The notes: generated by a model not told the origin, from the sequence alone. A stretch of 64,000 nt of DNA from Minisyncoccota bacterium (GCA_041660745.1 JBAZVT010000003.1:1880-65879), one strand, 5' to 3'; shown: positions 43,116-62,685, counted from the stretch's first letter. Program-made: numbers and translations.

Positions 43116-43180
43116 CTGTCATTGCGAGCGACTTCAGCAGCTGGTACCCGAGAGCGGTATACTCGCGTGGCAATCCAGTC
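43116..43180 (-). repeat. repeat family B copy 1 (unit ...CTGGATTGC...CTCGCAATGACAG, inverted)
   Basis: ctgtcattgcgag...caatccagtc is the reverse complement of the CTGGATTGC-(variable stem-loop)-CTCGCAATGACAG unit seen at 53815, 54360, 55771 and 61593. Confidence 0.7.
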
Positions 43181-43312
43181 TAATACCCACACCCCCAGTC
43201 GCATGCGAGGATGTACACAAAAAGCGGTATAGAAAAATTTTTAAACCAATTTCTTTTTCTAACAAAATTCGAGCTTTTGTACGCATGCAACGGGGTTCCG
43301 TTGAAATAAAAT

Positions 43313-43338
43313 AAAAACCCGCCTTTCGGCGGGTTTTT
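43313..43338 (-). terminator. rho-independent terminator of rplL
   Basis: aaaaacccgcc-tttc-ggcgggttttt overlapping the stop-codon region; T-run on the minus strand. Confidence 0.85.
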
Positions 43339-43341
43339 ATT

Positions 43342-43737
43342 TTATTTCAACTCCACTTTTGCACCTGCATCCTCAAGAGCTTTCTTGAGAGCCTCTGCAT
43401 CTTCTTTCTTCATACCTTCCTTGAGCATCTTTGGAGCTGCATCAACGAGGTCTTTTGCTTCCTTGAGACCAAGAGCAAGAGCTTCTTTTACAACCTTAAT
43501 AACTGCAATCTTCTGAGCACCTGCATCTGCGAGGTTAACACTGAAAATTGTTTTCTCTTCTGCCGCACCCGCTGCTGCTGGAGCTGCGACTGCTGTTGCT
43601 GCTGCAGAAACACCAAACTTAACTTCAAAGAATTTTACAAGCTCGTTGAGATCAAGTACTGACATGTTCTCAATTGCTGTTACGATATCCTTGAATTTTG
43701 CTGGAGTCTCAACAACTGTATTCTGTGCGTTGTCCAT
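43342..43737 (-). CDS. rplL: 50S ribosomal protein L7/L12
   Basis: Ala-rich hinge [15 protein letters not shown]-terminal [23 protein letters not shown]...AGAKVELK. Confidence 0.96.
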
Positions 43738-43807
43738 AATAATTCGTAATAATTAATAAATATTAAGCCTGCTTTTTCCTAAACCCTTCGGGTCGGACGA
43801 ACCTCAT

Positions 43808-44299
43808 TTATGAGGTTTTAGTCTTTGCGATAGCATCGAGAGCGATAACAAGTCCCTGTATTGGAGAATTGATAACGTTGACGAACATACCATAAAGAGT
43901 TTTCTGAGAAGGAATGAGGGCGATAGCCATCATCTCTTCTTTGTTCATAAACTTACCTTCGAAGACACCTCCGAGGATTTGAATTTTCTTGTCGAGCTTC
44001 TTCTGGAAGTCATAGACTTCGCGAGCTGCATCGGTAAGATCTTTACTGAATGCCATTCCAAGTTCGCCTGGGAGTTCTGGCAACGTACCAGTGACACCAC
44101 CATCAACAAGAGCTTTCTTAGTGATAGTTTTCTTAGCAATCTTGTACCCTATTCCCAAGCCCTTGAGAGTCTTGCGAATAATAGTAGCGTCAGCAACTGT
44201 CAATCCATGGAAGTTGAAGAGAACGATAGAACCAGAGGTTTTTACCGCATCACTTACTTCTGCATAAATTTCCTTTTTCTTTTCTTTTGAGATAGCCAT
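43808..44299 (-). CDS. rplJ: 50S ribosomal protein L10
   Basis: MAISKEKKKEIYAEVSDAVK...; directly upstream of rplL. Confidence 0.95.
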   Translation of the reverse strand: MAISKEKKKEIYAEVSDAVKTSGSIVLFNFHGLTVADATIIRKTLKGLGIGYKIAKKTITKKALVDGGVTGTLPELPGELGMAFSKDLTDAAREVYDFQKKLDKKIQILGGVFEGKFMNKEEMMAIALIPSQKTLYGMFVNVINSPIQGLVIALDAIAKTKTS

Positions 44300-44660
44300 T
44301 TGGAATTTTTTACGAACGTAGTGAGTTTAAAATTCCCACCCTGTTAAATCCCCTGAGTACAGGGAATCATAGAAATCTGATTTCTATGACATTTAACAGG
44401 GTTGTGAAAATATATTCGCTAGGCTCGTTATTTTCTACAAAATAAATCGACCCGTAAGGGCCTGATAAAAGTGAGATCTCACATATCAATAGATATGTGA
44501 GTAAACCTCGATAGGCTATTCCAGCAAAGCTGGACGCCCGTCCACCGAAGGTGGATTAGGGACCTGTATTAAAGCGGTTTTCCGCTGCCTATTGTCTTTG
44601 GCCTTACGAGGTACATATTTACATAAAATAGTTCACTTGTAAAGCAAGTACCCGCAGAAC
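44300..44660 (-). promoter_or_regulatory. rplJ (L10) 5' leader, likely autoregulatory L10-leader structure
   Basis: About 360-nt structured non-coding region upstream of rplJ with multiple hairpins; position is canonical for the L10(L12)4-binding leader. Includes the family E palindrome at 44337-44403. Confidence 0.45.
44337..44403. repeat. repeat family E copy 1 (CACCCTGTTAAATCC ... ATTTAACAGGGTT with variable hairpin core)
   Basis: Same 11-bp terminal inverted repeat ccctgttaaat/atttaacaggg as at 60946-61002; inner sequence differs but is itself a hairpin. Confidence 0.7.
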
Positions 44661-44707
44661 AATCTTTTTAAAAAATATATAATTTTCTACTAAAACCCTC
44701 CATTATA

Positions 44708-44741
44708 AAAAGGGTGCGGTCCGCAGCGGACCGCACCCTTT
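44708..44741. terminator. GC-rich terminator hairpin bounding GC-island 3 (bidirectional)
   Basis: aaagggtgcggtccgc-agc-ggaccgcaccctt followed by TGTTTT (+) and preceded by TTTTTATAATG (-). Confidence 0.75.
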
Positions 44742-44770
44742 GTTTTCCAACCGAGCGACACAGGTGGTCG

Positions 44771-45031
44771 CTACTCTTCTTGACCGTTTTCAGGGCAGTC
44801 CGGTTCCAACTCACAAGAGAAGTAGTACCCGAGACAGACTCCAAAGAGAATGAAACCAATCGGTCCCCCAACAACAGTAAGAGCCCTGCCCCAGAAGTCC
44901 GATTCCCTTGGCTCAAGATGACTCCGGAAAAGTCCGAAATCCTGCCAAAGAAATATCAAAACGCTCCAGACAGAACAGCAGGCCCAAAGACATGGAAGCC
45001 ACTGATAAGGATTGTGAAAAAAGGCACTCAT
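44771..45031 (-). CDS. small two-TM membrane protein (86 aa) on GC-rich island, canonical SD
   Basis: MSAFFHNPYQWLPCLWACCSVWSVLIFLWQDFGLF...ALTVVGGPIGFILFGVCLGYYFS; AGGAG 9 nt upstream of the ATG at 45031; the ORF-track entry 44771..45271 is an upstream over-extension. Confidence 0.5.
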   Translation of the reverse strand: MSAFFHNPYQWLPCLWACCSVWSVLIFLWQDFGLFRSHLEPRESDFWGRALTVVGGPIGFILFGVCLGYYFSCELEPDCPENGQEE

Positions 45032-45077
45032 ACAGCATCTCCTTTCCCGAAAGTTCCTACACAGAAGGCAAGTACGA

Positions 45078-45365
45078 TTACTCCTGCATTGGTTTGTGCA
45101 GTATTCTTTCACGCCTCGCAAGCGCCCCCGCAAAATCGTGAGCACATATTGAGATGGGTCCGAAGAGGACCCTGAATATGTACAGACGCCACGATGCCCA
45201 CGAGAATTTCCCCCGAGAAAGATCTGGGAAGAAAACGAACGCAGCGCCGATTGAGTAGCGCAGCCACGCAAGAACCGCGAGGCCTACAACAACAGCAACG
45301 ATCCCGACGGGTACAACCAGACATTCCCACATAAGAATCTCCTTCCAAAAAATAAACATCCACAT
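45078..45365 (-). CDS. small membrane protein (95 aa) on GC-rich island, SD-bearing
   Basis: MWMFIFWKEILMWECLVVPVGIVAVVVGLAVLAWLRYSIGAAFVFF...; GGATGAGGAAAG upstream of the ATG at 45365; the track entry 45078..45458 starts at TTG. Confidence 0.45.
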   Translation of the reverse strand: MWMFIFWKEILMWECLVVPVGIVAVVVGLAVLAWLRYSIGAAFVFFPDLSRGKFSWASWRLYIFRVLFGPISICAHDFAGALARRERILHKPMQE

Positions 45366-45407
45366 TCTTTCCTCATCCTTTATACCACACCTCATATCTA
45401 ATATCAA

Positions 45408-45439
45408 AAAGACCCGGGCATGTGTATGCCCGGGTCTTT
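45408..45439 (-). terminator. terminator hairpin inside GC-island 3
   Basis: aaagacccgggcat-gtgt-atgcccgggtcttt; T-run on the minus strand. Confidence 0.7.
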
Positions 45440-45464
45440 GTCCTAATGATTTGGACAAACTACT

Positions 45465-45704
45465 TCACCCCTGAAACATGTTCGCAAGAGCAATGCGCTG
45501 ACCGACACCGACGTATGGCTTCTGTTCAGAAGCAGGGAAACAACCTGCTAGCGGTGTTCCATACCCCTCGGGACCCCACAACGAACCAGGCTTGTGATAC
45601 CCACGTCCACACGATGCGACAGCCGCCAAGTCGCAAGGAGGCAGGCCACTCACATCTGCCCACGTCAGATCGCTCACCTCAGCAGTAACGTAACCGCCAC
45701 GCAT
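45465..45704 (-). CDS. hypothetical 79-aa protein on GC-rich island, GGAGG SD 5 nt upstream
   Basis: MRGGYVTAEVSDLTWADVSGLPPCDLAAVASCGRGYHKPGSLWGPEGYG...; no similarity recognised. Confidence 0.4.
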   Translation of the reverse strand: MRGGYVTAEVSDLTWADVSGLPPCDLAAVASCGRGYHKPGSLWGPEGYGTPLAGCFPASEQKPYVGVGQRIALANMFQG

Positions 45705-45783
45705 AGTGCCTCCATAGGTAAAAGAAAAGTTTATTCCGCGAACGCTCTATCACCAGAGTACCATATTGGAAGCATCGTGGGTA

Positions 45784-48700
45784 TTATTCTTCTTTTACCT
45801 CGTGTCCACCTTCAACAAAAATAATTTCCGGCACAACAACTTCTTCCGTTTGTAATTCTAATACCTCTAAAGGTTTATTTAGGGCATCATTTTTTTCCTC
45901 AACAACACCCTCCCCGCTTTCTAAATTATCGGGTTCTTTGTATTCATCGGCAATAGGTGTGGGAGTCTCTCCTTCTGTTTTTTCTTCAGAACTCACAGGG
46001 ACCTCCTCTTCCGTTTTTTCTAAAGTAGTGCTTGCTATTGATGCAGATTCCGTTTCTTCTAACATGGCCATTTGCATAGCACCGAAGACACCATCTTCGT
46101 GTATTTCAATAGCCTCAGAAAGAAGTGCAACAGTCACTGGATCTTCTGCATATGCGAGCTTAGGATTTCCTGACGGCACAGCATCAAACCATGGTGAAAA
46201 ATCGACAAGACCAAAGACTGAATCCCCCACTGCAAGATTATTTTTTATCTCTTCAAATGGCCCCGTCGCGTCACCCCACCAATTTTCTTGTGCGAGGATA
46301 GTATTTTCACCCGTAGAAAGAATGCCGTTTGAACGATTTCCAAATATTTGACTGCGAGCAACCGAAGCACTGTCCCCAAAGAAAAGAATCCCATATTCAT
46401 TACGGGCAAGTGTACTTGAAGCAATCACAACTTTCCCATCATCAAATATCCCAACACCCTCAGCTTCATTATCTGAAATATTTGAATTTGTAATCGTCAT
46501 TAAACCCGATGCCAAACTATTTCCAAATATTTCTACACCTGCACCACAATAAGAAATATCTGCATCAGAAATTTCTGCGGAAGAATTGTCGTATACATAC
46601 ACCCCTACCCCGTCCACACGGGAAATATTTGGACGTGTGACTTGGGCGGTGCTATTGGCATATATAGACAAAGCATCTCCAGAAATATTTGAAAGAGCGA
46701 GGTCAGAAAAAATCCCATGAGAATCCATGTACAGATTAATTCCGCCCGTAGTATTTTCAGCGCGCACGTCAGAAAGAGTGACCTCGGCCCCGTCGTATGC
46801 ATTCACAATGGAATCACCGCCAGAAATACTAGTATCCTGTATCGCAAGCGTACACTGTCTACAGGTGACGGTATCAGTATATGGAGAGCCTGTGATTGTG
46901 CTGTTTGAAATAACCACTGAAGAACTTGCCTGTGCACTTATTCCATCCTCAAGTTTTTTTATTTTTGTATATCCAAATACATTTCCTACAGACCCTGAAT
47001 AAAACTCCGTTGCACCAGTGCCATATTCAGAGAGTTCCCCATTATCAGAAGACCTCAAATCTCCCCCGACAGAATCATCTGTAAATTCAGTAAAAATAAC
47101 TGGATTGTCTGATGTGCCAAGCGACTTGATAGTACCCTCCACAGAAAGTCCTGTTGCATAACTCCCCCAACTTCCATTATCGTAAAATTTTACAATCGTC
47201 CCAGGCAAGAGTGTCAGCGTTGTTCCTGAAGCGACGTGTATATTACCTTCAAACACATACGGACTTTCTTCTGGAGTGAGTATCATATCTTCTGTAAAAG
47301 TTTCCCCTCTATACCACACAGTCGAAACACTGTTACGTGACTTTGGCGTGCCTAGGATATATCCATCTTTTGAATCTTTTCCATTTGCAATTTCTCCGGT
47401 GTTCGCATTCCAGTTTTCATAATCAAATCCCCCAACATACGGCGAGACCCGTTCCATGGTTCTTTTGTCACCAGTATCATTACTCCCCCCTGGCCAACTT
47501 CCTTCAACCAACACTGTCGTGTCTATGGTTGTAGATCCGTAATTTAGATTCAATATAACACCACTATTGTTGAGAGCTCCGACATATACAAGGTCTGCTT
47601 GGATATCTGAAACAGAAGTATTGTCTGTTCTCTCCAAGAGAAAGTAGCCATGGGCAGGAATTGTTTTTGATAATGAAATACGCGGTGTTCCAGTAGCTTT
47701 ACTATTAACAAGAGCCCAGCCCGAAAGATCTATATCATACGGAGTCGTGTTATACAGCTCCAACCATTCATCATTAGCATCAGCCTCTGTGCCCATCCAA
47801 GCAACTTCATTAATAACTACAGGCATCGTCGCAACAGACACACTCACTGCAACAGGCTCAGAATCACCACCTGCATTGTGTGCTGAGACAGTAAATTGTA
47901 AGTCACTTCTATCATCAACAACCACGCTGAGCCCAGAGTATGTGGTTGTAGAAACAAGACCGTTTAAATTAAATGTAAAATATTCAGCAATACCAAGAGA
48001 TTCATCTGCTTGCCAGGTCAACGTCAGGGTTGTTGTTGCAACTAGACAGCCAGTCGAGACGAGAGACTGCGAACACTCAGCGACTGAAAAATTTGTAACT
48101 CCAGGAAGCTCAGGAAGAAACGGTGACGGGATTACAGGAACCTCCGGTTCTCCGGGAGATGCTGTGTGGCGGGATCTATTTGACCCAGAATAAATAACCT
48201 GTGTTGGGTTATAAAAAGGCGCAAACACCCCAGTTGGGAAATTTGCGTCAGCTACTTTTGATTGATCTATAAAGCTCGGTGTAGAATTAAGTTCCAATCC
48301 CTCACCCTCATCAAGGACTGTGGTGATACTATTAGTAGTCTTTGACTGTAAAAAAGTAATTGATTTTATTGCAGACTGTGCAAAAGTCTGAGCACTTTCA
48401 CCTGTCTTTTTCGCAACAACCGTTGCTGTTGTCTTTCCGGTATATCCAAGAACGGAAGCGATATTCCCACCCGTTTGCACTGTCCACAACGTTCCATAAT
48501 TAGCACCCCTCCAGGCGCTTGTCGCAACTTTTGCCACAGGTGCACCTATGTAATCTGAGAAAAGATACGCAAAGCCAATTGGTATAAGTTGAAAAATATT
48601 TTTCTTCGCAAGACCCTCAGCAAGCTCTTTATCCTTCAGCGCCTCTTCTACTTGCTCCTGCTTTTGCTCTGCAAGATATTCCTCGCGCGCCGCTTTCGCC

Positions 48701-49575
48701 TCTTTCAAAAACAGCTCTATCACTCCCGCCGACGCCAGCACAGCTTGTTTTGAAAGACGATCAAAGTAGGAAGAGAGGACGGAGTCAGAAAAATAATATG
48801 TCCTTACACCATCCAAACTTATTTTTGTATTTAAAATTTCATATTTTTGGTTATCCAAACCGTCAACACCATAAATAACTGACCCGTCAGAATTTTCAAT
48901 TTCTGGATTTTCAAAATAATTTTCTGAATTATCTATTGTATCTGCACTAAAAAAATTCTTATTTGAGTAGTCTGCAAGATATTCAAAATATTCTGAGATG
49001 TCTGAAAAAGTTATTGGTTCATATCTCCGGTCAACATATTCCTTTGCAGTGCCCGTAAGCGCACTACCATCTTTCCTGCGAGCCCAATTCTCATAAGGAC
49101 TATCTCCTGTATATAACCCGGAAGCACCGTCTCCTTTATGTGGATCATTTCTTGTATGTTCAGGAACAGTCATATCCTGAATAAGATGCAGTACATGACC
49201 TAGCGACAAGAACGCTTTATTATCATTCCCCTCAGCATAATATTGGATCGCTTTTGGCCAAGAAAATTCATTAGCAACAAGCACCCCATCCGTACCCCAA
49301 TCTTTTGCTGAGCGATAGTTATTAAAACCGATTTCTCCTCTCGGATCATAAAAATGATTGAGGGCTCGAATCCCAGCATCCTCATCGACTGATCCCTGAA
49401 TAATTAAACGTTTTTCTGAATCATGTATTTTATCCGTTATGGACTGTAAATTATAAAACTCTATCCCCTGCTCGGTTATGCCAGGGTGAGTTGTTCCAGA
49501 ATGGTATGCACTCACAAAAAATATAGCCCCAAGAAATAAAGGCCCAAAAAACATTCTAAAAAATATCTTTTTCAT
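45784..49575 (-). CDS. 1263-aa secreted multidomain protein: zinc-dependent phospholipase C-like domain + Ig/Fn3-like + lamin-tail domain (LTD) + right-handed beta-helix repeats
   Basis: Signal peptide. N-terminus ALNHFYDPRGEIG...FLSLGHVLHLIQDMTVPEH resembles the Zn-PLC/alpha-toxin H-F-W/Y-D-P and H-x(2)-GD-x(2)-P-x-H motifs. VVINEVAWMGTEADANDEWLELYNTTPYDIDLSGWALV is a lamin-tail-domain signature. Repetitive NISGD/SNISDN pectate-lyase-like beta-helix repeats. Acidic C-terminal tail. Confidence 0.7.
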   Translation of the reverse strand: MKKIFFRMFFGPLFLGAIFFVSAYHSGTTHPGITEQGIEFYNLQSITDKIHDSEKRLIIQGSVDEDAGIRALNHFYDPRGEIGFNNYRSAKDWGTDGVLVANEFSWPKAIQYYAEGNDNKAFLSLGHVLHLIQDMTVPEHTRNDPHKGDGASGLYTGDSPYENWARRKDGSALTGTAKEYVDRRYEPITFSDISEYFEYLADYSNKNFFSADTIDNSENYFENPEIENSDGSVIYGVDGLDNQKYEILNTKISLDGVRTYYFSDSVLSSYFDRLSKQAVLASAGVIELFLKEAKAAREEYLAEQKQEQVEEALKDKELAEGLAKKNIFQLIPIGFAYLFSDYIGAPVAKVATSAWRGANYGTLWTVQTGGNIASVLGYTGKTTATVVAKKTGESAQTFAQSAIKSITFLQSKTTNSITTVLDEGEGLELNSTPSFIDQSKVADANFPTGVFAPFYNPTQVIYSGSNRSRHTASPGEPEVPVIPSPFLPELPGVTNFSVAECSQSLVSTGCLVATTTLTLTWQADESLGIAEYFTFNLNGLVSTTTYSGLSVVVDDRSDLQFTVSAHNAGGDSEPVAVSVSVATMPVVINEVAWMGTEADANDEWLELYNTTPYDIDLSGWALVNSKATGTPRISLSKTIPAHGYFLLERTDNTSVSDIQADLVYVGALNNSGVILNLNYGSTTIDTTVLVEGSWPGGSNDTGDKRTMERVSPYVGGFDYENWNANTGEIANGKDSKDGYILGTPKSRNSVSTVWYRGETFTEDMILTPEESPYVFEGNIHVASGTTLTLLPGTIVKFYDNGSWGSYATGLSVEGTIKSLGTSDNPVIFTEFTDDSVGGDLRSSDNGELSEYGTGATEFYSGSVGNVFGYTKIKKLEDGISAQASSSVVISNSTITGSPYTDTVTCRQCTLAIQDTSISGGDSIVNAYDGAEVTLSDVRAENTTGGINLYMDSHGIFSDLALSNISGDALSIYANSTAQVTRPNISRVDGVGVYVYDNSSAEISDADISYCGAGVEIFGNSLASGLMTITNSNISDNEAEGVGIFDDGKVVIASSTLARNEYGILFFGDSASVARSQIFGNRSNGILSTGENTILAQENWWGDATGPFEEIKNNLAVGDSVFGLVDFSPWFDAVPSGNPKLAYAEDPVTVALLSEAIEIHEDGVFGAMQMAMLEETESASIASTTLEKTEEEVPVSSEEKTEGETPTPIADEYKEPDNLESGEGVVEEKNDALNKPLEVLELQTEEVVVPEIIFVEGGHEVKEE

Positions 49576-49576
49576 G

Positions 49577-50185
49577 TTAGTTTTCTATTTTCCAAATATT
49601 TTTATAAGGATTTAACACGAATCCCACAGACCAATTTTCCTTACTACCTGCAGGAGTTGTAAAAGAGTATTCCCTCCCAGCTATTACACTAGAAGAAGTA
49701 GCTGCTTCTGTTGTCACATGAACGCTAGTAAAAAAGCACACTTCCTTGATGATGCCGGGGCCATTAGAACCTATATATTTTTCACACTTCTTAAATCCAG
49801 AATCTCTGACAACAGTAAGATAATTAAACATGAAACTCTTTTTTTCTTCTGACTCAAAGACACTCCTCAGACTCTCCTTTTGTTTTTCTTGCATTTCGAC
49901 AACATAATATTTGCTTGCCTCTTCAAGATTATTCTTCTTAAGAGCTGCAATAAACATATCCAACGTCCCCTCAGGCGTAGTACTCCCCATTGTGTCTTTC
50001 TTGTATGCCTCCTCCAGTTTCTGTCTTGGCTCTACAACCAATCTATTATAAATCGCTTCCTGACGTTGGTTCTCCATCCACAACGTAATCTTCTCACCGT
50101 ACACACCTAGAAAATAAAAAAGAATAAAAAGAGCAACAATAACAACCCCGCCAACAATGAGAGATTTTTTCAAAAAAGGAGACAT
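49577..50185 (-). CDS. hypothetical membrane-anchored protein, start adjacent to the stop of the 1263-aa gene (likely co-operonic)
   Basis: N-terminal TM (LIVGGVVIVALFILFYFLGV); no recognisable domain. Confidence 0.5.
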   Translation of the reverse strand: MSPFLKKSLIVGGVVIVALFILFYFLGVYGEKITLWMENQRQEAIYNRLVVEPRQKLEEAYKKDTMGSTTPEGTLDMFIAALKKNNLEEASKYYVVEMQEKQKESLRSVFESEEKKSFMFNYLTVVRDSGFKKCEKYIGSNGPGIIKEVCFFTSVHVTTEAATSSSVIAGREYSFTTPAGSKENWSVGFVLNPYKNIWKIEN

Positions 50186-50342
50186 TTTACGTAATATTTA
50201 ATTTAGAAATAATAATTACCAAAAACTTTTTTATTGACACACCCCACAAACCATTTTCTATATTGTATCACCCGCCCCACCAAAAATCTTCATTCCCTTT
50301 TAATAAAAACTGTGGATAACTTTTTCTTCCTTAGGACTCTTC

Positions 50343-50382
50343 CATAGGACCGCCCTATGTTTTCACATAGGGCGGTCCTATG
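50343..50382. repeat. REP-like hairpin D1 flanking the RAYT gene (CATAGGACCGCCCTATG-ttttca-CATAGGGCGGTCCTATG)
   Basis: 17-bp perfect stem; ends 4 nt from the RAYT stop codon; identical stem to D2 at 51105-51144. Confidence 0.85.
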
Positions 50383-50386
50383 GAAA

Positions 50387-51082
50387 TTATTTTGGCTCAC
50401 CTCTTAAATCTCCAAGATCCCTGAACTCAAGCCAGTCAGAAACAATACTTTCAAAAGATGGCGCTGGAGACGAAAAGTAATCCGGAAACTCATCAGCTTT
50501 TAGTATTTTTGATTCAGGTCTTAAATTAAAGTTAATTTCCACATATTCCTTGTAACTTGAATATTTATAATTATCTAAGAAATTCTCAGCTTTTTGCATG
50601 TCCACAACCCCCCTCTCTTTCCACGCAGGATCAATAATCTTTACCGGATTTAAATGTATATATGAAACTAAATACTTTAAATATTCGTCGGTATTTGCAT
50701 GAACTGCTTTAAATCGGCTCTCAAAAAGACTTCCGGTCCGTGTATTTTTTCTATTGAAATACATTGAGTATGACGTAAGCAATTTACCCAAAAATTTACT
50801 TATACCACCTTCTTCTGTTTCTTTTAAAAGTATGTGGAAATGATTTGGCATCAAACAGTATGCGCCGACAGAAACAATACTATCTTTCTTTTGAAAATTA
50901 AAAATATCCTTAAATTCCTTCTCAATCTCCCTAAAAGTTATATTTTGAGATGTATTATAAACAAATAAACCTTTAATAAAACGTTGATAATCTCTTTCGT
51001 CCTGAAAAATAAAGCGTTTATCAACGCCTCGAGCATAAATGTGATAGTACTCTCCTACACTAAATTCGATTTTTCTTTGCAT
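50387..51082 (-). CDS. REP-associated tyrosine transposase (RAYT) / IS200-like Y1 HUH transposase (COG1943)
   Basis: HUH motif LMPNHFHILL; C-terminal SRFKAVHANTDEYLKYLVSYIHLNPVK matches the RAYT catalytic-Tyr region (compare RFWEH...DYIYINPVK). Confidence 0.85.
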   Translation of the reverse strand: MQRKIEFSVGEYYHIYARGVDKRFIFQDERDYQRFIKGLFVYNTSQNITFREIEKEFKDIFNFQKKDSIVSVGAYCLMPNHFHILLKETEEGGISKFLGKLLTSYSMYFNRKNTRTGSLFESRFKAVHANTDEYLKYLVSYIHLNPVKIIDPAWKERGVVDMQKAENFLDNYKYSSYKEYVEINFNLRPESKILKADEFPDYFSSPAPSFESIVSDWLEFRDLGDLRGEPK

Positions 51083-53814: not shown

Positions 53815-53891
53815 CTGGATTGCTTCGGATGATTACATCCTCGCAAAGACAGAAACTGGATCCCCGCATCCGCGAGGATGACAGAGAAAAG
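53815..53891 (+). repeat. repeat family B copy 2 (two tandem direct units)
   Basis: ctggattgcttcggatgattacatcctcgcaaagacagaaa + ctggatccccgcatccgcgaggatgacagagaaaag. Confidence 0.7.
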
Positions 53892-54250
53892 ATGTCTTAA
53901 TTCAAAGTCTTACTGCGCTATTTAATTGTCAAAGGTCTATCGTATTATCCACCCTCTCTGTAACATCTTACGAACACCGCGTGTATTCGTTACATGCCTT
54001 CATTAACTTTCTATCTGTAATGTGGACGTACCATGAAGATACATCTACTGGATAATTATATTCCTTATACAGGTACACTGCAAAGGATACTGTGGATAAC
54101 TTCTAAAAAATCCCGCACGGGACACATCTAGAAGTGGGTATAAGTATAGTCTTTTTATGAAGAAAGTCAATGAAGAAAAGGATTAAAAAGTAATTATGTG
54201 GCTAAAAGCATACGTATTTAGTATGAGTATAAGGAGGTAAAAGAATGCTA

Positions 54251-54300
54251 AAAACAGAGGCTTAGCCTTTTTGAAGATCCAAGGCTAAGCCTCTGTTTTT
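54251..54300. repeat. repeat family C copy 1: terminator-like palindrome AAAACAGAGGCTTAGCCTT-loop-AAGGCTAAGCCTCTGTTTT
   Basis: 19-bp stem flanked by A-run and T-run; same stem core as 54557-54608 and 63516-63564. Confidence 0.75.
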
Positions 54301-54359
54301 AAAAGAAAAAAGGAGAAGGTTAAATCATAGACTGTTCTCTACTACACAAAAAGCCACAT

Positions 54360-54436
54360 GTCATTCCCACGAAGGCGGGAATCTGGATTTGCATTGAACC
54401 TGGATTCCCGCCTTCGCGGGAATGACAGAGAGGAGG
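54360..54436. repeat. repeat family B copy 3 (inverted pair of units forming a long hairpin)
   Basis: gtcattcccacgaaggcgggaatctggatt-tgcattgaa-cctggattcccgccttcgcgggaatgacagag. Confidence 0.7.
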
Positions 54437-54488
54437 ACAAAAAAGATATTAGAAGGCTCGCAAAGACAGGAGAGGAAAAAAGCAAAGA

Positions 54489-54529
54489 CAAAAGTCCGAC
54501 CTTTTTGCAGTAAAAAGGTCGGACTTTTG
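54489..54529. other. 18-bp perfect hairpin containing the AAAAAGGTCGGAC motif
   Basis: caaaagtccgaccttttt-gcagt-aaaaaggtcggacttttg; related AAAAAGGTCGG words at 33147 and 14012. Confidence 0.6.
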
Positions 54530-54556
54530 GAAAGACGAGATATGAAAGAAAATATG

Positions 54557-54608
54557 AAAATACAGAGGCTAAGCCTTTCTGGGGATTTAAGGCTTAGCCT
54601 CTGTATTT
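54557..54608. repeat. repeat family C copy 2; functions as terminator of the 54619-55506 gene
   Basis: aaaatacagaggctaagcctt-tctggggattt-aaggcttagcctctgtatttatttt; sits 10 nt downstream of the stop on the minus strand. Confidence 0.75.
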
Positions 54609-54618
54609 ATTTTGTCCT

Positions 54619-55506
54619 TTAAGCGAACGCGAGAGAGTATGTACTCCAACGGCGTTCCCCTTCTTTCTTAAGGACACCTTCGGCAACAAGGGCGAGAAGC
54701 TCGCGTTGGAGAGTTTTCTCACTACACCCCTTCACCACATCAGCAATATCTTTCACACTAACTTTACTCTTTCTGGTTACAAGGGCGAGAATTGCAGTAA
54801 CACGTTTTGTCTTCTTTTCCTCCACAGGAGACACATGAGCTGGTCGTGCCGGAGCTATATTTTGAGTAAATGTCTTTTTGACAGAAGTGGACGATGAAAC
54901 AAACGGAGCCTCTGCAGGTCGAGATTGTTCACGAGATATAAAGGACACTTTTTGTGAGGGCATAAAGTTGTCTTTTATAACTTTTCTTTCTTCCTCTCGG
55001 ACGGCTGACACATCTGCGTGCGTGGAATTTATTTCTGGTTTTTTTACATGGAAAAATGATTCCCCAAATGCCATCGGATTCACTCCAATAGTTTCAGAGG
55101 CCTCTTTCTTGTCCACAAGATTTATAAGTGCTGTAAACTCCCGTAAAAGTATCGTGTGGTTCATCGGACTAATGAGTCCAGCGGTATGTGCTATTTCTAC
55201 GAGCGTTGCAAGATGGGTAATTCCCTTCTTCACACTTACAAGCGAAAACCCTGAACCTGTTCCTGAGATGGACATAGCCGTGAGAATGTCTGAGAGAATT
55301 GTTGACGATGCGGAGCGCATATTCCACTTCATCGGCTCATTGTCCGAGAAGAAATTTGTAATGAGGTAGAGTGCAGTAGCGAGACGTTCTGTCTTTTTGT
55401 ATATAAAAGCAGATCCAGCATCACCATTAAAGACACTTAAAGAAACCTCTTTCTTTTCAGGGGTATTTTGTACGGCTGTATTCTGGATGTCTTTTTGATT
55501 ATCCAT
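54619..55506 (-). CDS. hypothetical protein with C-terminal winged-helix DNA-binding domain, embedded in a repeat-rich non-coding island
   Basis: C-terminus VSVKDIADVVKGCSEKTLQRELLALVAEGVLKKEGERRWSTYSL is a typical wHTH; N-terminal 200 aa without recognisable similarity. Confidence 0.5.
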   Translation of the reverse strand: MDNQKDIQNTAVQNTPEKKEVSLSVFNGDAGSAFIYKKTERLATALYLITNFFSDNEPMKWNMRSASSTILSDILTAMSISGTGSGFSLVSVKKGITHLATLVEIAHTAGLISPMNHTILLREFTALINLVDKKEASETIGVNPMAFGESFFHVKKPEINSTHADVSAVREEERKVIKDNFMPSQKVSFISREQSRPAEAPFVSSSTSVKKTFTQNIAPARPAHVSPVEEKKTKRVTAILALVTRKSKVSVKDIADVVKGCSEKTLQRELLALVAEGVLKKEGERRWSTYSLAFA

Positions 55507-55770
55507 AGTATTGTCTTTTATGTATTAAACGTACCTTCTAAAGTGTCCTTTATAGCACTTCCTTCCCGAGACATTTGTAATGGACATTAGTATACACCTG
55601 ACCCCAGAAATTGCAATAGGTCAAAGAATTGCAATGTCTTTTATATGTCTTTGAACATGTTTATACGGCGAAGTACGGGGATAAAAACGGTGGATAACAT
55701 TGTAGTTACTATAAGACGAACGTGATATAATAAGAGAAGTATAAGGAAGGGTGTGAGAAAGAGAAAAATA

Positions 55771-55913
55771 CTGGATTGCTTCGGAATACCTCGCAACTAG
55801 AGCACCTGATACCCGCGAGCGGTAAAGACAGAATGGAAAAGGTAGGAGAAAATAGAGGAACAAAGACTGGATTGCCACGTCGGCAACCTCCTCGCAATGA
55901 CAGAATGGAAAAG
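55771..55913 (+). repeat. repeat family B copy 4 (two direct units) in the ftsK 5' UTR
   Basis: ctggattgcttcggaatacctcgcaa...gacagaatggaaaag and ctggattgccacgtcggcaacctcctcgcaatgacagaatggaaaag; ORF-track entries 55621-55958 here are spurious. Confidence 0.7.
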
Positions 55914-55939
55914 ACAAAAAACATAAAAACTAAACTATC

Positions 55940-58297
55940 ATGGCACGAGAAAAATTAGAAAAAGAAACACGAACAGAGCGCGAGGAACGTGGCGAGAAAT
56001 TTGAACGTTCCCAAAGAAAACAGAAAAAACAACGTGGTGTTTTTCGAGACCTCCAAGACGAGACCCGTCAGCATGTCTGGGGGATCGTATTTTTTGTTAT
56101 TGGAATTTTTCTCATTTTGGCAGCATTCGGCGGCAGCGATAGTAACCTCGCAGGACGAGCTGGTGGATTCTTCTATGGGACATTTCACACCCTACTCGGT
56201 ATCGGTTATTACATGATTCCCCTTCTCATGTTCATGCTCGGCATATCTTTTATGAAAGCTATGGAGAGAAGTTTTGCACTTACAAAAACTATTGGTGCGG
56301 TAATCTTCTTCCTCTCTTCTCTCGGAACAATTGGCACTATCGGTATCATTGTTGATGATCGCATCGGTGGCATCCTCGGATATTATGTTGCCCTACCCCT
56401 TGTCGGACTTTTTGATATTTATGCGACGCTCATCTTCCTCCTCGCACTCGTCGGTATTTCTTGTCTCATCATATTTGATACACACATCAACTTCAGCACC
56501 TTTGCTTTCGTAAAAAGAATGTTTGCACGGAAAGAAAAAGTACTCTCTGCAGAATTGGATACCGAGGAGGAGAAAAAGGCAGATGCAGCTATTGCTGTTG
56601 AGATGAAAAAAGTAGAAGAAAAGCCAGAACAAGCAGCCCAGAAAAAAGCACCTCTCGGAAAGATAGATGATAAAGATTTTTCTGTCTCTCAGAGGCACTT
56701 TGCCCTTGGGGTAAAGTTCATCCCTCCCCCGCTCTCCCTGCTGGAACGAGATAAAGGGAAACCAGAAGTTGGTGATATCAAAGCACAAGCAAACATCATC
56801 AAGCGTTGTTTACAGAATTTCGGCATCACTGTGGAAATGGACGAAATCTCTATCGGACCAACTGTCACACGATACGCACTCAAACCCGCAGAAGGTGTGA
56901 AACTTTCAAAGATAGTCTCACTCCAAAACGACCTATCTCTAGCTCTCGCTGCCCACCCCATCCGTATTGAAGCACCTATCCCCGGCAAGTCGCTCGTAGG
57001 TGTTGAAATACCAAACGTTACCAAAACCATGGTTGGTCTTGGATCCATGTTTGCTATGCCAGAATTCTTGGAATCACCAAAACCAATGCTTGTATCTATC
57101 GGTCGCGGTATTTCTGGAGCATCGCATTTCTCCGACTTGGCAAAAATGCCCCACCTCCTTGTTGCTGGTGCTACCGGTTCCGGTAAGTCTGTGACCATCC
57201 ACACACTCATCACTTCGCTTCTCTACCGCAACTCACCAGAAGACATGAAATTCATTATGATTGACCCGAAGCGTGTGGAACTTACTCTCTACAACAAAAT
57301 CCCCCACCTCCTTACCCCCGTTATTACTGATGCGAAGAAAACTATTCTATCTCTGAAGTGGGCAGCTAAAGAAATGGACCGACGCTATGATGTGTTGCAG
57401 ATTGAAAAGTGTAGAGATATAAACTCGTACCACAAGAACATCCTCGGTCCCGCCATGAAGAAATATGAGGAAAAGCTAGCAAAAGGAACCGTAAGCGAGG
57501 AGGACCAGAAAAAGATGCCTGAGACGATGCCTTACATCGTGATTATTATAGACGAGCTCGCAGACCTCATGCAGGCATACCCACGAGAACTGGAATCAGC
57601 GATCGTCCGCCTCGCACAAATGAGTCGTGCTGTTGGTATTCATCTCATTATTTCCACACAACGTCCATCTGTAAACGTTATCACCGGTCTTATCAAAGCA
57701 AACATTCCGACTCGTATTGCTCTTCAGGTGGCTAGTCAGATAGATTCACGCACAATTTTAGATATGGGAGGTGCCGAAGAATTGCTCGGCGCCGGAGATA
57801 TGTTGTATCTCTCCCCTGATATTTCCAAACCAATCCGCGTACAGTGTCCGTTCATATCTGAAAGCGAGGTTAAAAAGGTAGTGGATCATGTTGCGGAACA
57901 ATACGCAGGATCAATTCCAAGCGAAATTAACTTTAGTGAAGAACAACAAAAAAATGCCCTCTTTGACGCACAGCTCGACGAAGTAGCTGATATGGAAGAC
58001 GAGGACGAACTCTATGAAGAGGCTCGAGAGATTGTTATTGCATCACATAAAGCATCTACTTCATTTCTTCAGCGAAAGCTGGGGGTTGGATATGCTCGCG
58101 CGGCAAAACTTATTGATTCACTGGAAGCACGCGGTGTCGTGGGTCCTGGAAACGGATCTAAGGCTCGTGATGTCCTGGAAAGTGCCCCTCAAGGCATTGG
58201 GGAGGACTTTGCAGCAGCAAGTGCAGAAGCAGCACGAGAAGATGCTAGATCTGGTGGTAATACAGATACAGAAGAAGAAGAGGCTAAAACGTTTTGA
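55940..58297 (+). CDS. ftsK: DNA translocase FtsK/SpoIIIE
   Basis: N-terminal 4-TM domain, motor domain with Walker A GATGSGKS and DELADL Walker B, C-terminal gamma wHTH (STSFLQRKLGVGYARAAKLIDSLEARGVVGP). Confidence 0.95.
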   Translation: MAREKLEKETRTEREERGEKFERSQRKQKKQRGVFRDLQDETRQHVWGIVFFVIGIFLILAAFGGSDSNLAGRAGGFFYGTFHTLLGIGYYMIPLLMFMLGISFMKAMERSFALTKTIGAVIFFLSSLGTIGTIGIIVDDRIGGILGYYVALPLVGLFDIYATLIFLLALVGISCLIIFDTHINFSTFAFVKRMFARKEKVLSAELDTEEEKKADAAIAVEMKKVEEKPEQAAQKKAPLGKIDDKDFSVSQRHFALGVKFIPPPLSLLERDKGKPEVGDIKAQANIIKRCLQNFGITVEMDEISIGPTVTRYALKPAEGVKLSKIVSLQNDLSLALAAHPIRIEAPIPGKSLVGVEIPNVTKTMVGLGSMFAMPEFLESPKPMLVSIGRGISGASHFSDLAKMPHLLVAGATGSGKSVTIHTLITSLLYRNSPEDMKFIMIDPKRVELTLYNKIPHLLTPVITDAKKTILSLKWAAKEMDRRYDVLQIEKCRDINSYHKNILGPAMKKYEEKLAKGTVSEEDQKKMPETMPYIVIIIDELADLMQAYPRELESAIVRLAQMSRAVGIHLIISTQRPSVNVITGLIKANIPTRIALQVASQIDSRTILDMGGAEELLGAGDMLYLSPDISKPIRVQCPFISESEVKKVVDHVAEQYAGSIPSEINFSEEQQKNALFDAQLDEVADMEDEDELYEEAREIVIASHKASTSFLQRKLGVGYARAAKLIDSLEARGVVGPGNGSKARDVLESAPQGIGEDFAAASAEAAREDARSGGNTDTEEEEAKTF

Positions 58298-58397
58298 TTA
58301 CAAAACATTCGCCCAGGGAAAAAGATTATTAATCGGTCGGAGATTAACCAACACATCTATGAGGATAGAAAACAACAGAGGAAAAATTATTTTGAAA

Positions 58398-58716
58398 ATG
58401 AGCGTTGTTATTGTTGTTATCCTGGGCGTTGCTGGATATTGCTACCATCAATCCTCAAGACTCATAGATGGGCCTCAGGTCACCATCATCTCCCCTCTCA
58501 ACGGCTCAAGCTCTTCATCACCTCTTACAGAAATTGTTGGTATCGCCAAAAAATATTTCAAAAATCACACTCAACGATCGCCAAATTTTTATTGATGATA
58601 ATGGGAACTTTAGTGAACGGCTTTTATTATCAGATGGGTATAATATTTTAAAGATTGACGCTCAAGATAAGTTTGGAAAGAAAACGGAAAAAAAGATAGA
58701 AATCGTTAGAATTTAA
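58398..58716 (+). pseudogene. small membrane-anchored protein gene split by a +1 frameshift in an A6 homopolymer (58548-58553)
   Basis: Frame A 58398-58595 (MSVVIVVILGVAGYCYH...IVGIAKK) and frame B 58468-58716 (...ISKITLNDRQIFIDDNGNFSERLLLSDGYNILKIDAQDKFGKK...) are contiguous if one A is removed; could be a sequencing error or a genuine frameshift. Confidence 0.4.
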
Positions 58717-58743
58717 TACAATTAATAATAAAAGGAAATTTTT

Positions 58744-59820
58744 ATGGTGAAGAAAGAAAAAAAGGAAGCTAATTCAGGAGTGCGAGAAATCGAAGCGGCT
58801 ATTGCAGAAATCAAAACGAAATTTGGCGATGAATCAATCATGCGTCTCGGCGAAAGACCTCATGTGGATGTAGATGTAATCCCCACAGGCTCTATTGGTC
58901 TCGATGCGGCGCTTGGTGTCGGAGGTCTTCCGCGCGGAAGAATTGTTGAAATATTTGGTCCAGAATCATCTGGTAAGACTACCCTCGCCCTTCATGTCGT
59001 GGCAGAGGCTCAAAAGAAAGGCGGTGTCTGTGCATATATTGATGCAGAACACGCAATGGATCCAGAATACGCAACTAAACTTGGTGTTAATATCGACAAC
59101 CTCCTCCTCTCTCAACCAGATACGGGCGAACAGGGTCTTGATATTGTGGACAGTCTAGTCAGAACAGGAAAAATCGATGTTATTGTCATAGACTCAGTCG
59201 CAGCACTCACACCAAAAGACGAAATTGAGGGAGAAATGGGCGCATACCATGTCGGCAAACAAGCTCGCCTTATGTCACAAGCTCTCCGCAAGCTCACTGG
59301 TATCGTTGCAAAAAGCAAAACCATTGTCATTTTCATTAACCAGATCCGCATGCAAATCGGTGTGATGTTTGGCAACCCAGAAACAACACCGGGAGGAAAG
59401 GCCTTAAAATTCTACACCTCCATACGTATTGATATCAGAAAAATAGCTCAGATCAAGAAAGGAGAAGAAATCATGGGAAGCCGTGTCCGCGTAAAAGTGG
59501 TCAAAAACAAGGTGGCTGCCCCATTCAGGCAGACCGAGTTCGATCTTATGTACAACGAAGGTATCTCTATTGAAGGTGAGATCCTCGCTCTCGGAGAAAA
59601 AATGGGCATGATTTCAAAGAGTGGTGGTGCTTCCTATACCTATGGTGAAATGAAACTTGGACGTGGCTATGACGCAACACGAACATTCCTCCGCACCAAT
59701 CCAAAAATAAAAGACGAAATCCTCGGCAAGATTCGCAACGAGCTCAAAGAAGGTAAAATTATGACCGTTGGAAAAACAAAAGAAGAAGTGGAGGATGAGA
59801 AGGAAGAAGAGCCAAGCTAA
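58744..59820 (+). CDS. recA: recombinase RecA
   Basis: [13 protein letters not shown] Walker A, full-length RecA collinearity, acidic C-terminal tail. Confidence 0.97.
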
Positions 59821-59900
59821 GATACCGCACACTACTTAAAAATAGACAAAAACGGCCAATTAGCATAGAATTGCGAGGTTACTATAATATAAAAGGCACA

Positions 59901-60485
59901 ATGTCACTTCTTGAATATAATGAAGTCGTAGAACGAAAATATATCATATTGGACGGACAACCATACGAAGTTCTCACTTCACATGTTTTTCGTAAACAAC
60001 AGAGAAAGCCTGTTAATGCAGCAAAACTCAAGAACCTTATCACAGGTAAAGTCACGGAACATTCATTCCACGTATCCGAGAAAACTGAAGAAGCAGAAAT
60101 TGAAACACGAGAGGTAAAGTATCTGTATACAAGCAAGGGTGAATACTGGTTCTGTGAAGCTGAAGACCCTGCAAAACGTTTCCAGCTCTCTGCAGAAATT
60201 GTCGGGACAGCAATACAATTTATAAGAACAAATACAGTGATGGACTCGTATGTTTTTGATGACAAAATCATGGGCGTCCGCCTCCCTATCAAAGCCGACC
60301 TCAAAGTTGTAGATGCTCCTCCTGCAGTCAAAGGCGACACCGCAAAGGGTGGCAACAAGCAACTCAAACTTGAAACAGGTGCTGTTATCAACGGCCCCCT
60401 CTTCATTGAAGAAGGAGAGACCATCCGTGTTAATACAGAAACTGGAGAATACGTGGAGCGAGTAAACGAAGGAAAGAAGTTCTAA
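59901..60485 (+). CDS. efp: translation elongation factor P
   Basis: Three OB/KOW-like domains with EF-P collinearity. ATG at 59901 with TATAAT at 59884-59889, 11 nt upstream. Confidence 0.93.
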   Translation: MSLLEYNEVVERKYIILDGQPYEVLTSHVFRKQQRKPVNAAKLKNLITGKVTEHSFHVSEKTEEAEIETREVKYLYTSKGEYWFCEAEDPAKRFQLSAEIVGTAIQFIRTNTVMDSYVFDDKIMGVRLPIKADLKVVDAPPAVKGDTAKGGNKQLKLETGAVINGPLFIEEGETIRVNTETGEYVERVNEGKKF

Positions 60486-60523
60486 GACAAGGCACTAGCT
60501 ATTAGCCTCTAGAATCTAGCCAT

Positions 60524-60610
60524 AAAAAATATCAAGGTTCGACCTTGATATTTTTTGTATCCAACACCAAATACAAAAGCCGCGCCCAGAGGGCGCGGCT
60601 TTTGTTTTTC
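60524..60610. terminator. two consecutive terminators: efp terminator (atatcaaggt-tcg-accttgatat+T6) and a bidirectional GC-rich hairpin (aaaagccgcgccc-aga-gggcgcggctttt+T-run) shared with rpsR
   Basis: Sequence inspection. Confidence 0.8.
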
Positions 60611-60623
60611 TTATGTAACTAAT

Positions 60624-60827
60624 TTAATTAGCTACGAATGGGAGAAGGCCCATGAAACGAGCACGCTTTACAGCTTCTGAAAGCTTGCGCTGATTCTTGG
60701 AGCTAACACCACTGCGCTTGTGTGATGTGATACGGCCATGAGGATTGAGGAACTTTTTGAGGACCTCTATATCCTTATAGTCTATATGCTTTATGTTGTT
60801 TTGCGCAAAATAGCACTGTTTTTTCAT
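60624..60827 (-). CDS. rpsR: 30S ribosomal protein S18
   Basis: ...HIDYKDIEVLKKFLNPHGRITSHKRSGVSSKNQRKLSEAVKRARFMGLLPF. Confidence 0.9.
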   Translation of the reverse strand: MKKQCYFAQNNIKHIDYKDIEVLKKFLNPHGRITSHKRSGVSSKNQRKLSEAVKRARFMGLLPFVAN

Positions 60828-60876
60828 GTCTGATTTTTTAAGAGCGAAGCGATATAAAAGATGCCAAACTTTTGTT

Positions 60877-60933
60877 GCCTTCCTCGGCTCGGAAATGAGA
60901 AAATTTTTCTCATTTCTCTCACCCTACGTCGGC
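60877..60933 (+). repeat. repeat family A copy 3, in the ssb-rpsR spacer
   Basis: gccttcctcggctcggaa-[atgagaaaa ttt ttctcat]-ttctctcaccctacgtcggc. Confidence 0.75.
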
Positions 60934-60945
60934 AAGAAAAATCGG

Positions 60946-61002
60946 CACCCTGTTAAATCCGCTTCGCGGTATCTGCTTTCCAAGCAGATATTTAACAGGG
61001 TT
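60946..61002. repeat. repeat family E copy 2, directly adjacent to family A copy 3
   Basis: caccctgttaaatcc-gcttcgcggtatctgctttccaagcagat-atttaacagggtt. Confidence 0.7.
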
Positions 61003-61054
61003 AAGATTTTGTAACCGCACAATGTCGCTTTCGCTTCATTCTACGGACAAAATC

Positions 61055-61507
61055 TTAAAATGGAATGTCTTCAGGGTTAATCTCTTCTTCTGGATATTCT
61101 ATCGCTGGAGCATCTGCCGTCGGAGCCGGTGCGCCTTTCGTATCCTTTTCAGGATATGCGGCACCTGGTGTTCCTCCCTCTTTACGAGGACCAAACTGAA
61201 TTCGGTCTGCAATAACTTCTGTGCGATATTTTTTCTCTCCATCTTTACCATCCCAACTGCGTGTCTGCATTCTTCCCTCCACGAGGATAGAAGAGCCTTT
61301 TTTCATGTATTGAGCTGTTGTTGCAGCTTGATTTCCAAACACTACCACGTTGTGATAATCTGTCGCATCCTGGCGAACACCGCTCTTGTCCTTCCACGTT
61401 CTATTAGTTGCAACTGAGAAGGTGCATACTTTTATACCAGAAGGTAAAGATTTCAATTCTGGATCACGAACCAAATTACCTATGATAATTGCTTTGTTGA
61501 GATACAT
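61055..61507 (-). CDS. ssb: single-stranded DNA-binding protein
   Basis: OB-fold (IIGNLVRDPELK...VVVFGNQAAT...VEGRMQTRSW), Gly/Pro-rich tail ending in the acidic DIPF motif. Confidence 0.92.
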   Translation of the reverse strand: MYLNKAIIIGNLVRDPELKSLPSGIKVCTFSVATNRTWKDKSGVRQDATDYHNVVVFGNQAATTAQYMKKGSSILVEGRMQTRSWDGKDGEKKYRTEVIADRIQFGPRKEGGTPGAAYPEKDTKGAPAPTADAPAIEYPEEEINPEDIPF

Positions 61508-61592
61508 CCTGAGAATTAGTTAATTGATAATCTATCCTCATTATACTCCAAATGGAGTCTTTTTGCTTTGAGTTACAGTATCTCTTCTTACG

Positions 61593-61691
61593 GTCATTGC
61601 GAGTGCGTCCGAAGCAATCCAGTTTTTCTTGAATCTTGAATCAAATTCCTGGATTGCCACGTCGGAAGACCTCCTCGCAAAGACAGAGGAG
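61593..61691. repeat. repeat family B copy 5 (inverted pair) in the rpsF-ssb spacer
   Basis: gtcattgcgagtgcgtccgaagcaatccag-tttttcttgaatcttgaatcaaattc-ctggattgccacgtcggaagacctcctcgcaaagacagaggag. Confidence 0.7.
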
Positions 61692-62678: not shown

Positions 62679-62685
62679 GTAAAAA

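Follow-up and report, generated by a model that had tools for sequence, protein, structure and literature searches.

Intergenic palindromic repeats in a Candidatus Paceibacterota genome are probable members of the NTS/SRM family served by Ssn nucleases

A window of 64,000 nt from a metagenome-assembled genome (MAG) of Candidatus Paceibacterota, a lineage of the candidate phyla radiation (CPR), carries a family of short palindromic repeats at five intergenic sites among housekeeping genes. From their sequence we consider these repeats to be members of the Neisseria Transformation Sequence (NTS)/Ssn-related motif (SRM) family, with a cognate Ssn nuclease and a spread dependent on single-stranded DNA (ssDNA) as the likely mechanism; we would give this reading a probability of about 80%. 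The system is of a known kind (NTS/SRM-Ssn, and dRS3 earlier); the host phylum is new, and most copies belong to a variant that evades the published search pattern. All coordinates given below count from the start of the window.

Background

The NTS (consensus CGTCATTCCCGCGMAVGCGGGAATCYRG) includes dRS3, an older repeat of the form ATTCCC-N8-GGGAAT, and belongs to the broader class of SRM, for which the search pattern HGTCWYN(0-2)YYVSBRHN(0-5)WNVSBRGN(0-2)RNCYNB has been published (Chenal et al., Nat Commun 2025, PMC11893778). NTS and SRM are partnered by Ssn, a GIY-YIG nuclease with one domain and a length of about 94 aa. It binds the hairpin solely as ssDNA and in one orientation, cuts a few nucleotides 5' of GTC and is inactive on RNA; the GTC before the palindrome is important for cutting and the C after the palindrome for binding (PMC11893778). 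This one-strand cleavage of ssDNA has been published for the Neisseria and Wolbachia homologs only, and in Neisseria the cleavage of the repeats by Ssn modulates natural transformation (PMC11893778). The ssn genes are typically bracketed by a convergent pair of repeats, and Ssn homologs have been described mainly from Pseudomonadati (PMC11893778).

Repeat units in the window

Positions 43113 to 61690 hold at least ten units of two subtypes, distributed over five intergenic sites, in a tally that lists one half unit (54457-54470) and the composite D1. On the opposite strand their form is (T)GTCAT-stem-interior-stem-ATCCAG, with ATTGC/GCAAT or ATTCCC/GGGAAT as the outer stem. The subtype termed TTGC-type here follows the scheme GTCWTTGCGAG-variable-GCAATCCAG, with the outer stem ATTGC/GCAAT and an interior of 10-41 nt. 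It is the ends that give the units an orientation: the nine complete units start with GTC, and at their other end TCCAG, TCTGG or TCAG comes after the outer stem. In D1b the GTCAT end is missing, and in the half unit at 54457 the 3' half. The individual units are as follows.

A, 43113-43182, plus strand: TTGC-type, TTTCT-GTCATTGCGAG-(41-nt interior with a nested GTACC/GGTAC hairpin)-GCAATCCAG-TCT; between the rplL terminator and the start of a 209-aa gene
B1, 53815-53855, minus strand: TTGC-type, GTCTTTGCGAG-GATGTAATCATCCGAA-GCAATCCAG; inner 5-bp stem GGATG/CATCC
B2, 53856-53887, minus strand: short type, TGTCATCCTCGCGGATGCGGGGATCCAG; in tandem with B1, 5 nt apart; fits the published SRM pattern
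C1, 54359-54386, plus strand: TGTCATTCCCACGAAGGCGGGAATCTGG; left half of a convergent doublet; 2 mismatches to the NTS consensus; exact dRS3
C2, 54400-54431, minus strand: TCTCTGTCATTCCCGCGAAGGCGGGAATCCAG; right half of the doublet, 13 nt from C1; its core TGTCATTCCCGCGAAGGCGGGAATCCAG has 1 mismatch to the NTS consensus, is an exact dRS3 and fits the SRM pattern
Half unit, 54457-54470, minus strand: 5' part only, CCTGTCTTTGCGAG; no 3' partner
D1, 55771-55834, minus strand: composite of two different units joined
D1, part 55806-55834, minus strand: GTCTTTACCGCTCGCGGGTATCAG, a hairpin with a different stem
D1b, 55771-55805, minus strand: TTGC-type unit that has lost its GTCAT end
D2, 55867-55905, minus strand: TTGC-type, TTCT-GTCATTGCGAG-GAGGTTGCCGACGTG-GCAATCCAG; the ftsK start codon follows at a distance of 35 nt, and the start-to-start distance to D1 is 96 nt
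E1, 61590-61622, plus strand: TTGC-type, GTCATTGCGAG-TGCGTCCGAA-GCAATCCAG; left half of a convergent doublet in the S6-SSB spacer
E2, 61649-61690, minus strand: TTGC-type, CTCT-GTCTTTGCGAG-GAGGTCTTCCGACGTG-GCAATCCAG; right half of this doublet, 26 nt from E1

The abundance of the units is far above chance. In the window, CTGGATTSC was observed 8 times with 0.82 expected, GCAAWGACAG 5 times with 0.17 expected, the full frame CTGGATTGC-N(3-33)-CTCGCAAWGAC 4 times with 0.00 expected, and exact ATTCCC-N8-GGGAAT (dRS3) twice, at 54363-54382 and 54404-54423, with 0.01 expected. The ten units lie within 18.6 kb, and a mismatch-tolerant fuzzy search revealed no comparable copies in positions 1-43000. 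Intergenic sequence makes up 13.8% of the window, yet every unit is intergenic (P ~5e-5, treating the five loci as independent); the enrichment and the intergenic clustering are demonstrated within the window only. According to Pfam-supported gene assignments, A is located downstream of rplL, D2 in front of ftsK, and E1/E2 between the genes of S6 and SSB. Both orientations relative to the transcription of the neighbouring genes occur among the units.

A preliminary description of this DNA had proposed a repeat family at these five intergenic loci, arranged as tandem pairs (53815 and 55771) or inverted pairs (54360 and 61593), with one pair near ftsK and another in the rpsF-ssb spacer. The motif is indeed present at all five loci and in this arrangement. 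The inventory of units had to be revised to the two subtypes listed above, including the half unit and the composite at 55771-55834. The units are self-contained and 27-65 nt long, and hence not the fragments of a longer element, such as the end of an insertion sequence (IS), that would have spoken against the description.

Relation to NTS and SRM

Two units come very close to the NTS consensus, with matches at 27 of 28 positions in C2 and 26 of 28 in C1. The SRM pattern is matched by C2 and B2, whereas 0.17 matches are expected in the window. Three units (C1, C2, and B2) therefore agree with the NTS consensus or the SRM pattern and the remaining ones with neither. This published identity, which becomes apparent on the opposite strand, as well as the occurrence of the repeats across many phyla had escaped the preliminary description.

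The units were folded as ssDNA and compared with shuffled sequence. The hairpins of C2 (-10.2 kcal/mol, z = -4.6) and B2 (-7.8 kcal/mol, z = -4.0) and the fold of B1 (-6.5 kcal/mol, z = -2.4) clearly surpassed the shuffles, and the folding of A, C1, D1, D2, E1, and E2 did not (z between -1.3 and +0.4). Within the wider family, represented by 45 distinct TTGC-type units of 35 nt, the inner stem pair 14-20 covaries (G-C in 30 units, C-G in 7, A-T in 6), and the inner GCGAAGC mini-hairpin is therefore taken to be under selection. These data support maintained pairing at the level of the family, though several copies in the window are weak. The earlier statement that the interior always forms a hairpin thus holds in part.

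Repeats flanking Ssn genes and distribution of the TTGC-type

The proposed link between the repeats and Ssn draws on what flanks Ssn genes and not on the neighbours of a given repeat. A scan of IMG/VR with a single Ssn protein as query gave no matches; 28 IMG/VR loci encoding Ssn, gathered by an alignment search, served as the sample. An SRM-pattern match was located within 500 nt of the Ssn gene in 17 of these 28 loci, and the usual layout has a copy in forward orientation ~60-120 nt upstream of the gene and one in reverse orientation ~20-45 nt downstream. The 28-nt core of C2 is identical at all 28 positions to a repeat located 59 nt upstream of an Ssn gene (locus L262). Eight of the 11 loci without SRM match were inspected, and in most of them the termini are retained in variants with a long interior, such as GTCATCCCGG-(variable)-CCGGGACCCAG. 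In these variants a constant outer stem encloses a variable inside, which is the design of the TTGC-type.

TTGC-type units themselves are found on both sides of Ssn genes, in the usual layout, in a Legionellaceae MAG (L119), in the complete genome of Legionella oakridgensis (L276/L277), and in several ENA contigs (L279-L286); units flanking Ssn genes were thus found in other genomes than that of the window. The exact TTGC frame is present in at least 120 genome blocks, with one genome per species, and in at least 120 IMG/VR contigs, together more than 240 loci. Hosts among the matches listed include Alphaproteobacteria (Bradyrhizobium, sphingomonads, and Rickettsiales), Legionellales, Coxiellaceae, Bacteroidales, Melainabacteria, Bacillota, Spirochaetaceae, Opitutaceae, and Patescibacteria including Collierbacteria.

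That Ssn is present in Patescibacteria is indicated by two Ssn-type proteins annotated as Candidatus Daviesbacteria (P0276 and P0308), whose genes are flanked by TGTCATTCC...GGAATCCAG repeats. One locus (L292) shows TGTCATTCCCGCGTAGGCGGGAATCCAG 5 nt upstream of the Ssn gene and two further units downstream; a convergent doublet of the TTGC-type is also present there, along with a gene for a Y1 transposase. At another locus (L293) the Ssn gene is flanked by units ending in ...GGAATGACAGAGAG, with the same 5' extension CTCTCTGTCAT as in the window. Compared with PDB sequences, a patescibacterial Ssn gave only a weak match, to the UPF0213 protein BH0048 (E = 0.002).

Database entries also bear on how such loci are assembled. 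A contig from an independent short-read assembly for the same organism (Logan SRR18595301), identical to positions 54403-57280 of the window, ends inside the C1/C2 doublet, and many of the Ssn homologs in databases are located on contigs of 0.5-2 kb. The repeats appear to break short-read assemblies.

Empty sites in a close relative

The RecA of the window is 100% identical to a protein annotated as recombinase RecA in a MAG of Candidatus Paceibacterota. Relatives with a RecA 96% identical to that of the window were available from ENA and Logan (L287-L290) and as GCA_964413285.1 (L291). Window and relatives have a common gene order, comprising MscS-like, the 209-aa gene, L7/L12, L10, a PG-binding protein, a 295-aa gene, FtsK, RecA, EF-P, S18, SSB, S6, and TatD, and the aligned segments are 78-91% identical, with one at 71%. 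All five sites are devoid of family copies in the relative, in which 21 kb contained no complete unit, and for three of them the alignment reveals a clean additional block in the window. The five sites compare as follows.

Site A: ~70 nt between ACCAATA and AATA in the window; a clean gap in the relative L287
Site B: a 112-nt block in the window (53799-53910); 17 nt in the relative
Sites C and D: units in diverged spacers in the window; no unit in the relative
Site E: a 143-nt block in the window (61563-61705); 0 nt in the relatives L287 and L291

As these blocks are absent from the relative, the units were gained or lost as discrete blocks, in the manner of mobile elements, and are not conserved parts of the genes; apparently, they are recent insertions in this genome. 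A TCT on both sides is clear at A and D2 only and partial at B2, and a target-site duplication was therefore rejected as a general feature. Four metagenome loci with FtsK relatives (44-58% identity) were too distant for a comparison of empty sites; the matches to GCAATCCAG in these loci are located in coding sequence and were rejected as chance.

Doublets and a possible mechanism of spread

A set of 240 repeat-bearing loci contained 465 units. Of the pairs formed by neighbouring units, 144 were convergent, with their ATCCAG ends towards each other, 14 divergent, and 7 tandem. The gap between adjacent units has a median of 18 nt (10th-90th percentile 13-27 nt), so that the doublets of the window, with gaps of 13 nt (C1/C2) and 26 nt (E1/E2), are typical of the family. 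Their orientation is the same as that of the repeats bracketing ssn genes. By analogy with REPIN and RAYT, or with a miniature inverted-repeat transposable element (MITE) and its IS, a doublet may be regarded as a repeat-ssn-repeat cassette minus its gene. The empty sites together with the convergent doublets support the earlier suggestion of a mobile family in so far as the units form a dispersed family of the REP/REPIN kind.

A mechanism that would account for these observations starts from a cognate Ssn, which the Paceibacterota genome would encode, or would recently have encoded, outside the window. During replication, repair or DNA uptake, Ssn-dependent events on ssDNA would carry units, singly or as doublets without a gene, into the spacers between genes, and the inserted copies would mark the DNA for cleavage by Ssn once it becomes single-stranded. 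It is plausible that this genome has its own Ssn, a putative gene for which the search covered the 64-kb window only. A stronger version, in which units and doublets are non-autonomous mobile elements moved in trans by Ssn through hairpin-directed ssDNA transposition, active even in CPR bacteria with their streamlined genomes, is tentative and in our view rather doubtful. The indels of 70 and 143 nt and the 144:14:7 excess of convergent pairs fit, but do not prove, such a trans-mobilization by a GIY-YIG rather than an HUH/Y1 enzyme.

Assessment of the NTS/SRM assignment and of alternatives

Several observations weigh against the assignment to the NTS/SRM family and its proposed mechanism. Seven TTGC-type units fail the SRM pattern, because their outer stem TTGC does not agree with YYVS and their interior exceeds 5 nt, and the several TTGC-type copies that fold no better than shuffles may be decayed. 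In the 64-kb window, no open reading frame (ORF) for a GIY-YIG or Ssn protein was detected by regular expressions, tblastn, a hidden Markov model (HMM) of 46 family sequences run with --max, or phmmer with two GIY-YIG sequences as queries, and Pfam revealed no GIY-YIG domain in 28 distinct ORFs of the window. Among repeat-bearing loci an Ssn gene is present in only 2 of 245 (1.94 Mb). Such a low number is to be expected if a genome holds many repeats and one or few ssn genes, and the absence of ssn from the window therefore says little. Finally, the comparison with a single relative is compatible with an insertion here or a deletion there.

The absence of ssn from the window would also be expected if the units were inert relics of recombination, horizontal transfer or ssn loss, now without partner or activity. 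The degeneration of several copies, namely the half unit (54457), D1b with its truncation, and D2 and E1 with their poor folding, is in line with this, and 19% of the genomes with more than 200 SRM copies are without an Ssn homolog (PMC11893778). We nevertheless regard relics as unlikely. The 18.6 kb hold ten units, among them two copies that are nearly perfect NTS and two doublets that are well formed, and a relative of ~80% identity has none of them, which points to recent gain rather than old decay. Moreover, other Patescibacteria do have Ssn genes accompanied by matching repeats.

A function as transcribed regulatory RNA hairpins of the neighbouring genes, be it terminators, attenuators or mRNA-stabilizing stem-loops, has a low probability, although the units are without exception intergenic, with one group in the leader of ftsK and another in the rpsF-ssb operon spacer, and the doublets would give long RNA hairpins. 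The blocks are missing from the same spacers of the close relative with the same genes, and the units occur in both orientations relative to transcription. T-tracts are inconsistent, and a terminator scan found a single unit to be terminator-like. No Rfam family matches the repeats: only 23S and 5S rRNAs passed the gathering score in a scan of the whole window, by which alone sites A and E were covered, and a scan of 53400-56000 (sites B to D) at E <=1 gave only sub-threshold miRNA- or sRNA-like hairpins. Furthermore, conservation is seen in the ends outside the palindrome, GTC and C, which are the determinants of ssDNA cleavage and binding in Neisseria, where Ssn acts on ssDNA and not on RNA (PMC11893778). 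The structured RNA motifs offered as an alternative in the preliminary description thus find no support here; a secondary effect on transcripts, as known for repetitive extragenic palindromic (REP) elements, is possible.

A mobilization of the units as REP/REPIN elements by the RAYT-like Y1 transposase encoded at 50387-51082 is very improbable: inverted doublets are a hallmark of REPINs, the gene lies 2.7 kb from the nearest unit, and a Y1_Tnp gene is also found near the Ssn locus L292 of Daviesbacteria, but the Y1 gene of the window is bracketed by a different perfect palindrome (near-identical 44-nt copies CATAGGACCGCCCTATG...CATAGGGCGGTCCTATG at 50340-50386 and 51101-51144) with no units of the present family there, as had been recognized before, and the termini of the family are those of NTS/SRM, with identical units flanking GIY-YIG and not Y1 genes.

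Other features of the window

The Y1_Tnp gene is part of a 6.5-kb block (44648-51170) that corresponds to ~55 nt in the relative (L287, 2696-2750). In addition to the RAYT-like gene, this block encodes a 1263-aa protein with lamin-tail, beta-helix, and NosD domains and contains two ORFs without Pfam match; its right edge is located just beyond the second palindrome. Another difference to the relative concerns a 116-aa ORF without significant Pfam match (62328-62678, minus strand) between S6 and TatD, where positions 62307-62698 of the window correspond to 34 nt.

A third repeat family of ~90 nt, with the consensus ...TTTGATGCCTTCCTCGGCTCGGAAnTGAGAAAG..CTTTCTCAnTTC.CTCACTCTACGTCGGCAAT, was found at 7394-7482, 30232-30328 (reverse strand), and 60851-60941. 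The copy in the S18-SSB spacer lies within a 215-nt block (60839-61053) represented by 10 nt in the relative, and has the 10-mer TTGCCGACGT in common with the interior of D2. The copy on the reverse strand occupies the spacer between adjacent paralogs of an NAD-dependent epimerase/dehydratase (29105-30094 and 30321-31244), which are 76% identical over 300 nt (29100-29399 versus 30322-30621).

The B and C repeat groups are located in a gene-free stretch of 1.1 kb (53491-54618), which also contains two strong terminator-like palindromes (54249-54297 and 54489-54529) and DnaA-box-like sites at 53945, 54091 (perfect), and 54197. No convincing DnaA-box cluster that would mark this stretch as a replication origin was found; in the whole window, 35 such sites with at most one mismatch were counted and 19 expected. 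A family of small hairpins, ACAGAGGCTAAGCCT...AGGCTTAGCCTCTGT, occurs at three intergenic sites (54241-54269, 54549-54577, and 63505-63565) and looks like shared bidirectional terminators.

The match to 23S rRNA (37251-40968 region) spans 3400 nt compared with a model of 2925 nt, which leaves ~475 nt inserted; no intron family passes the threshold. Long inverted repeats bracketing the 23S rRNA (37434-37470/40932-40968 and 37494-37519/40896-40921) are probably processing stems. The scan of the 64 kb detected 23S and 5S and no 16S gene, tRNA or tmRNA. The 23S/5S arrangement fits a CPR/Paceibacterota origin.

Implications

With the repeats described here, the Ssn/SRM system, which was described in 2025 mainly from Pseudomonadati, is extended to Patescibacteria. 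Since the common TTGC-type evades the SRM pattern, the copy numbers and host ranges in the literature are probably underestimates. The comparison with the relative provides base-level evidence for the gain or loss of blocks and bears on the question whether repeat-ssn-repeat arrangements are mobile elements. In addition, the repeats generate spurious small ORFs in the annotation of CPR genomes. CPR bacteria presumably depend on taking up DNA, and, speculatively, a restriction of ssDNA of the Ssn type could matter for them.

Comparison with known systems

MITEs resemble the units of the window in being small, non-coding, and present or absent between relatives, and the doublets are like an autonomous element minus its gene. 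In contrast to MITEs, no parent IS of the transposase type and no consistent target-site duplication were found, and single NTS/SRM-type units of 27-36 nt disperse alone. The likeness to REP/REPIN-RAYT systems extends further: both consist of short extragenic palindromes with inverted doublets as the main dispersed form, both have an associated gene flanked by repeats, and in both the partner protein acts on ssDNA hairpins. However, the partner of NTS/SRM is a GIY-YIG nuclease and not an HUH/Y1 enzyme, and the RAYT-like gene of the window has its own, unrelated hairpins. With the dRS3 repeats of Neisseria, the window shares the exact ATTCCC-N8-GGGAAT of C1 and C2, but in another phylum, with two copies only, and without repeat units of the Neisseria type between them.

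The closest counterpart is the NTS/SRM family itself. Common to both are the frame GTCAT + palindrome + ATCCAG and an oriented, hairpin-forming, intergenic, and clustered occurrence, and units identical to copies of the window flank Ssn genes elsewhere. Differences concern the host, which is Candidatus Paceibacterota (CPR) here and mainly Pseudomonadati in the published work (PMC11893778), and the base before GTC, which is T in the window and C in the published repeats. Most copies of the window are of the TTGC-type with an interior of 10-41 nt, outside the published SRM pattern, and the 64-kb window contains no ssn gene. What the present analysis adds to the published system is that the TTGC-type flanks ssn genes, that the convergent doublet is the dominant arrangement, and that indels at three of the five sites can be defined to the base by comparison with a relative.

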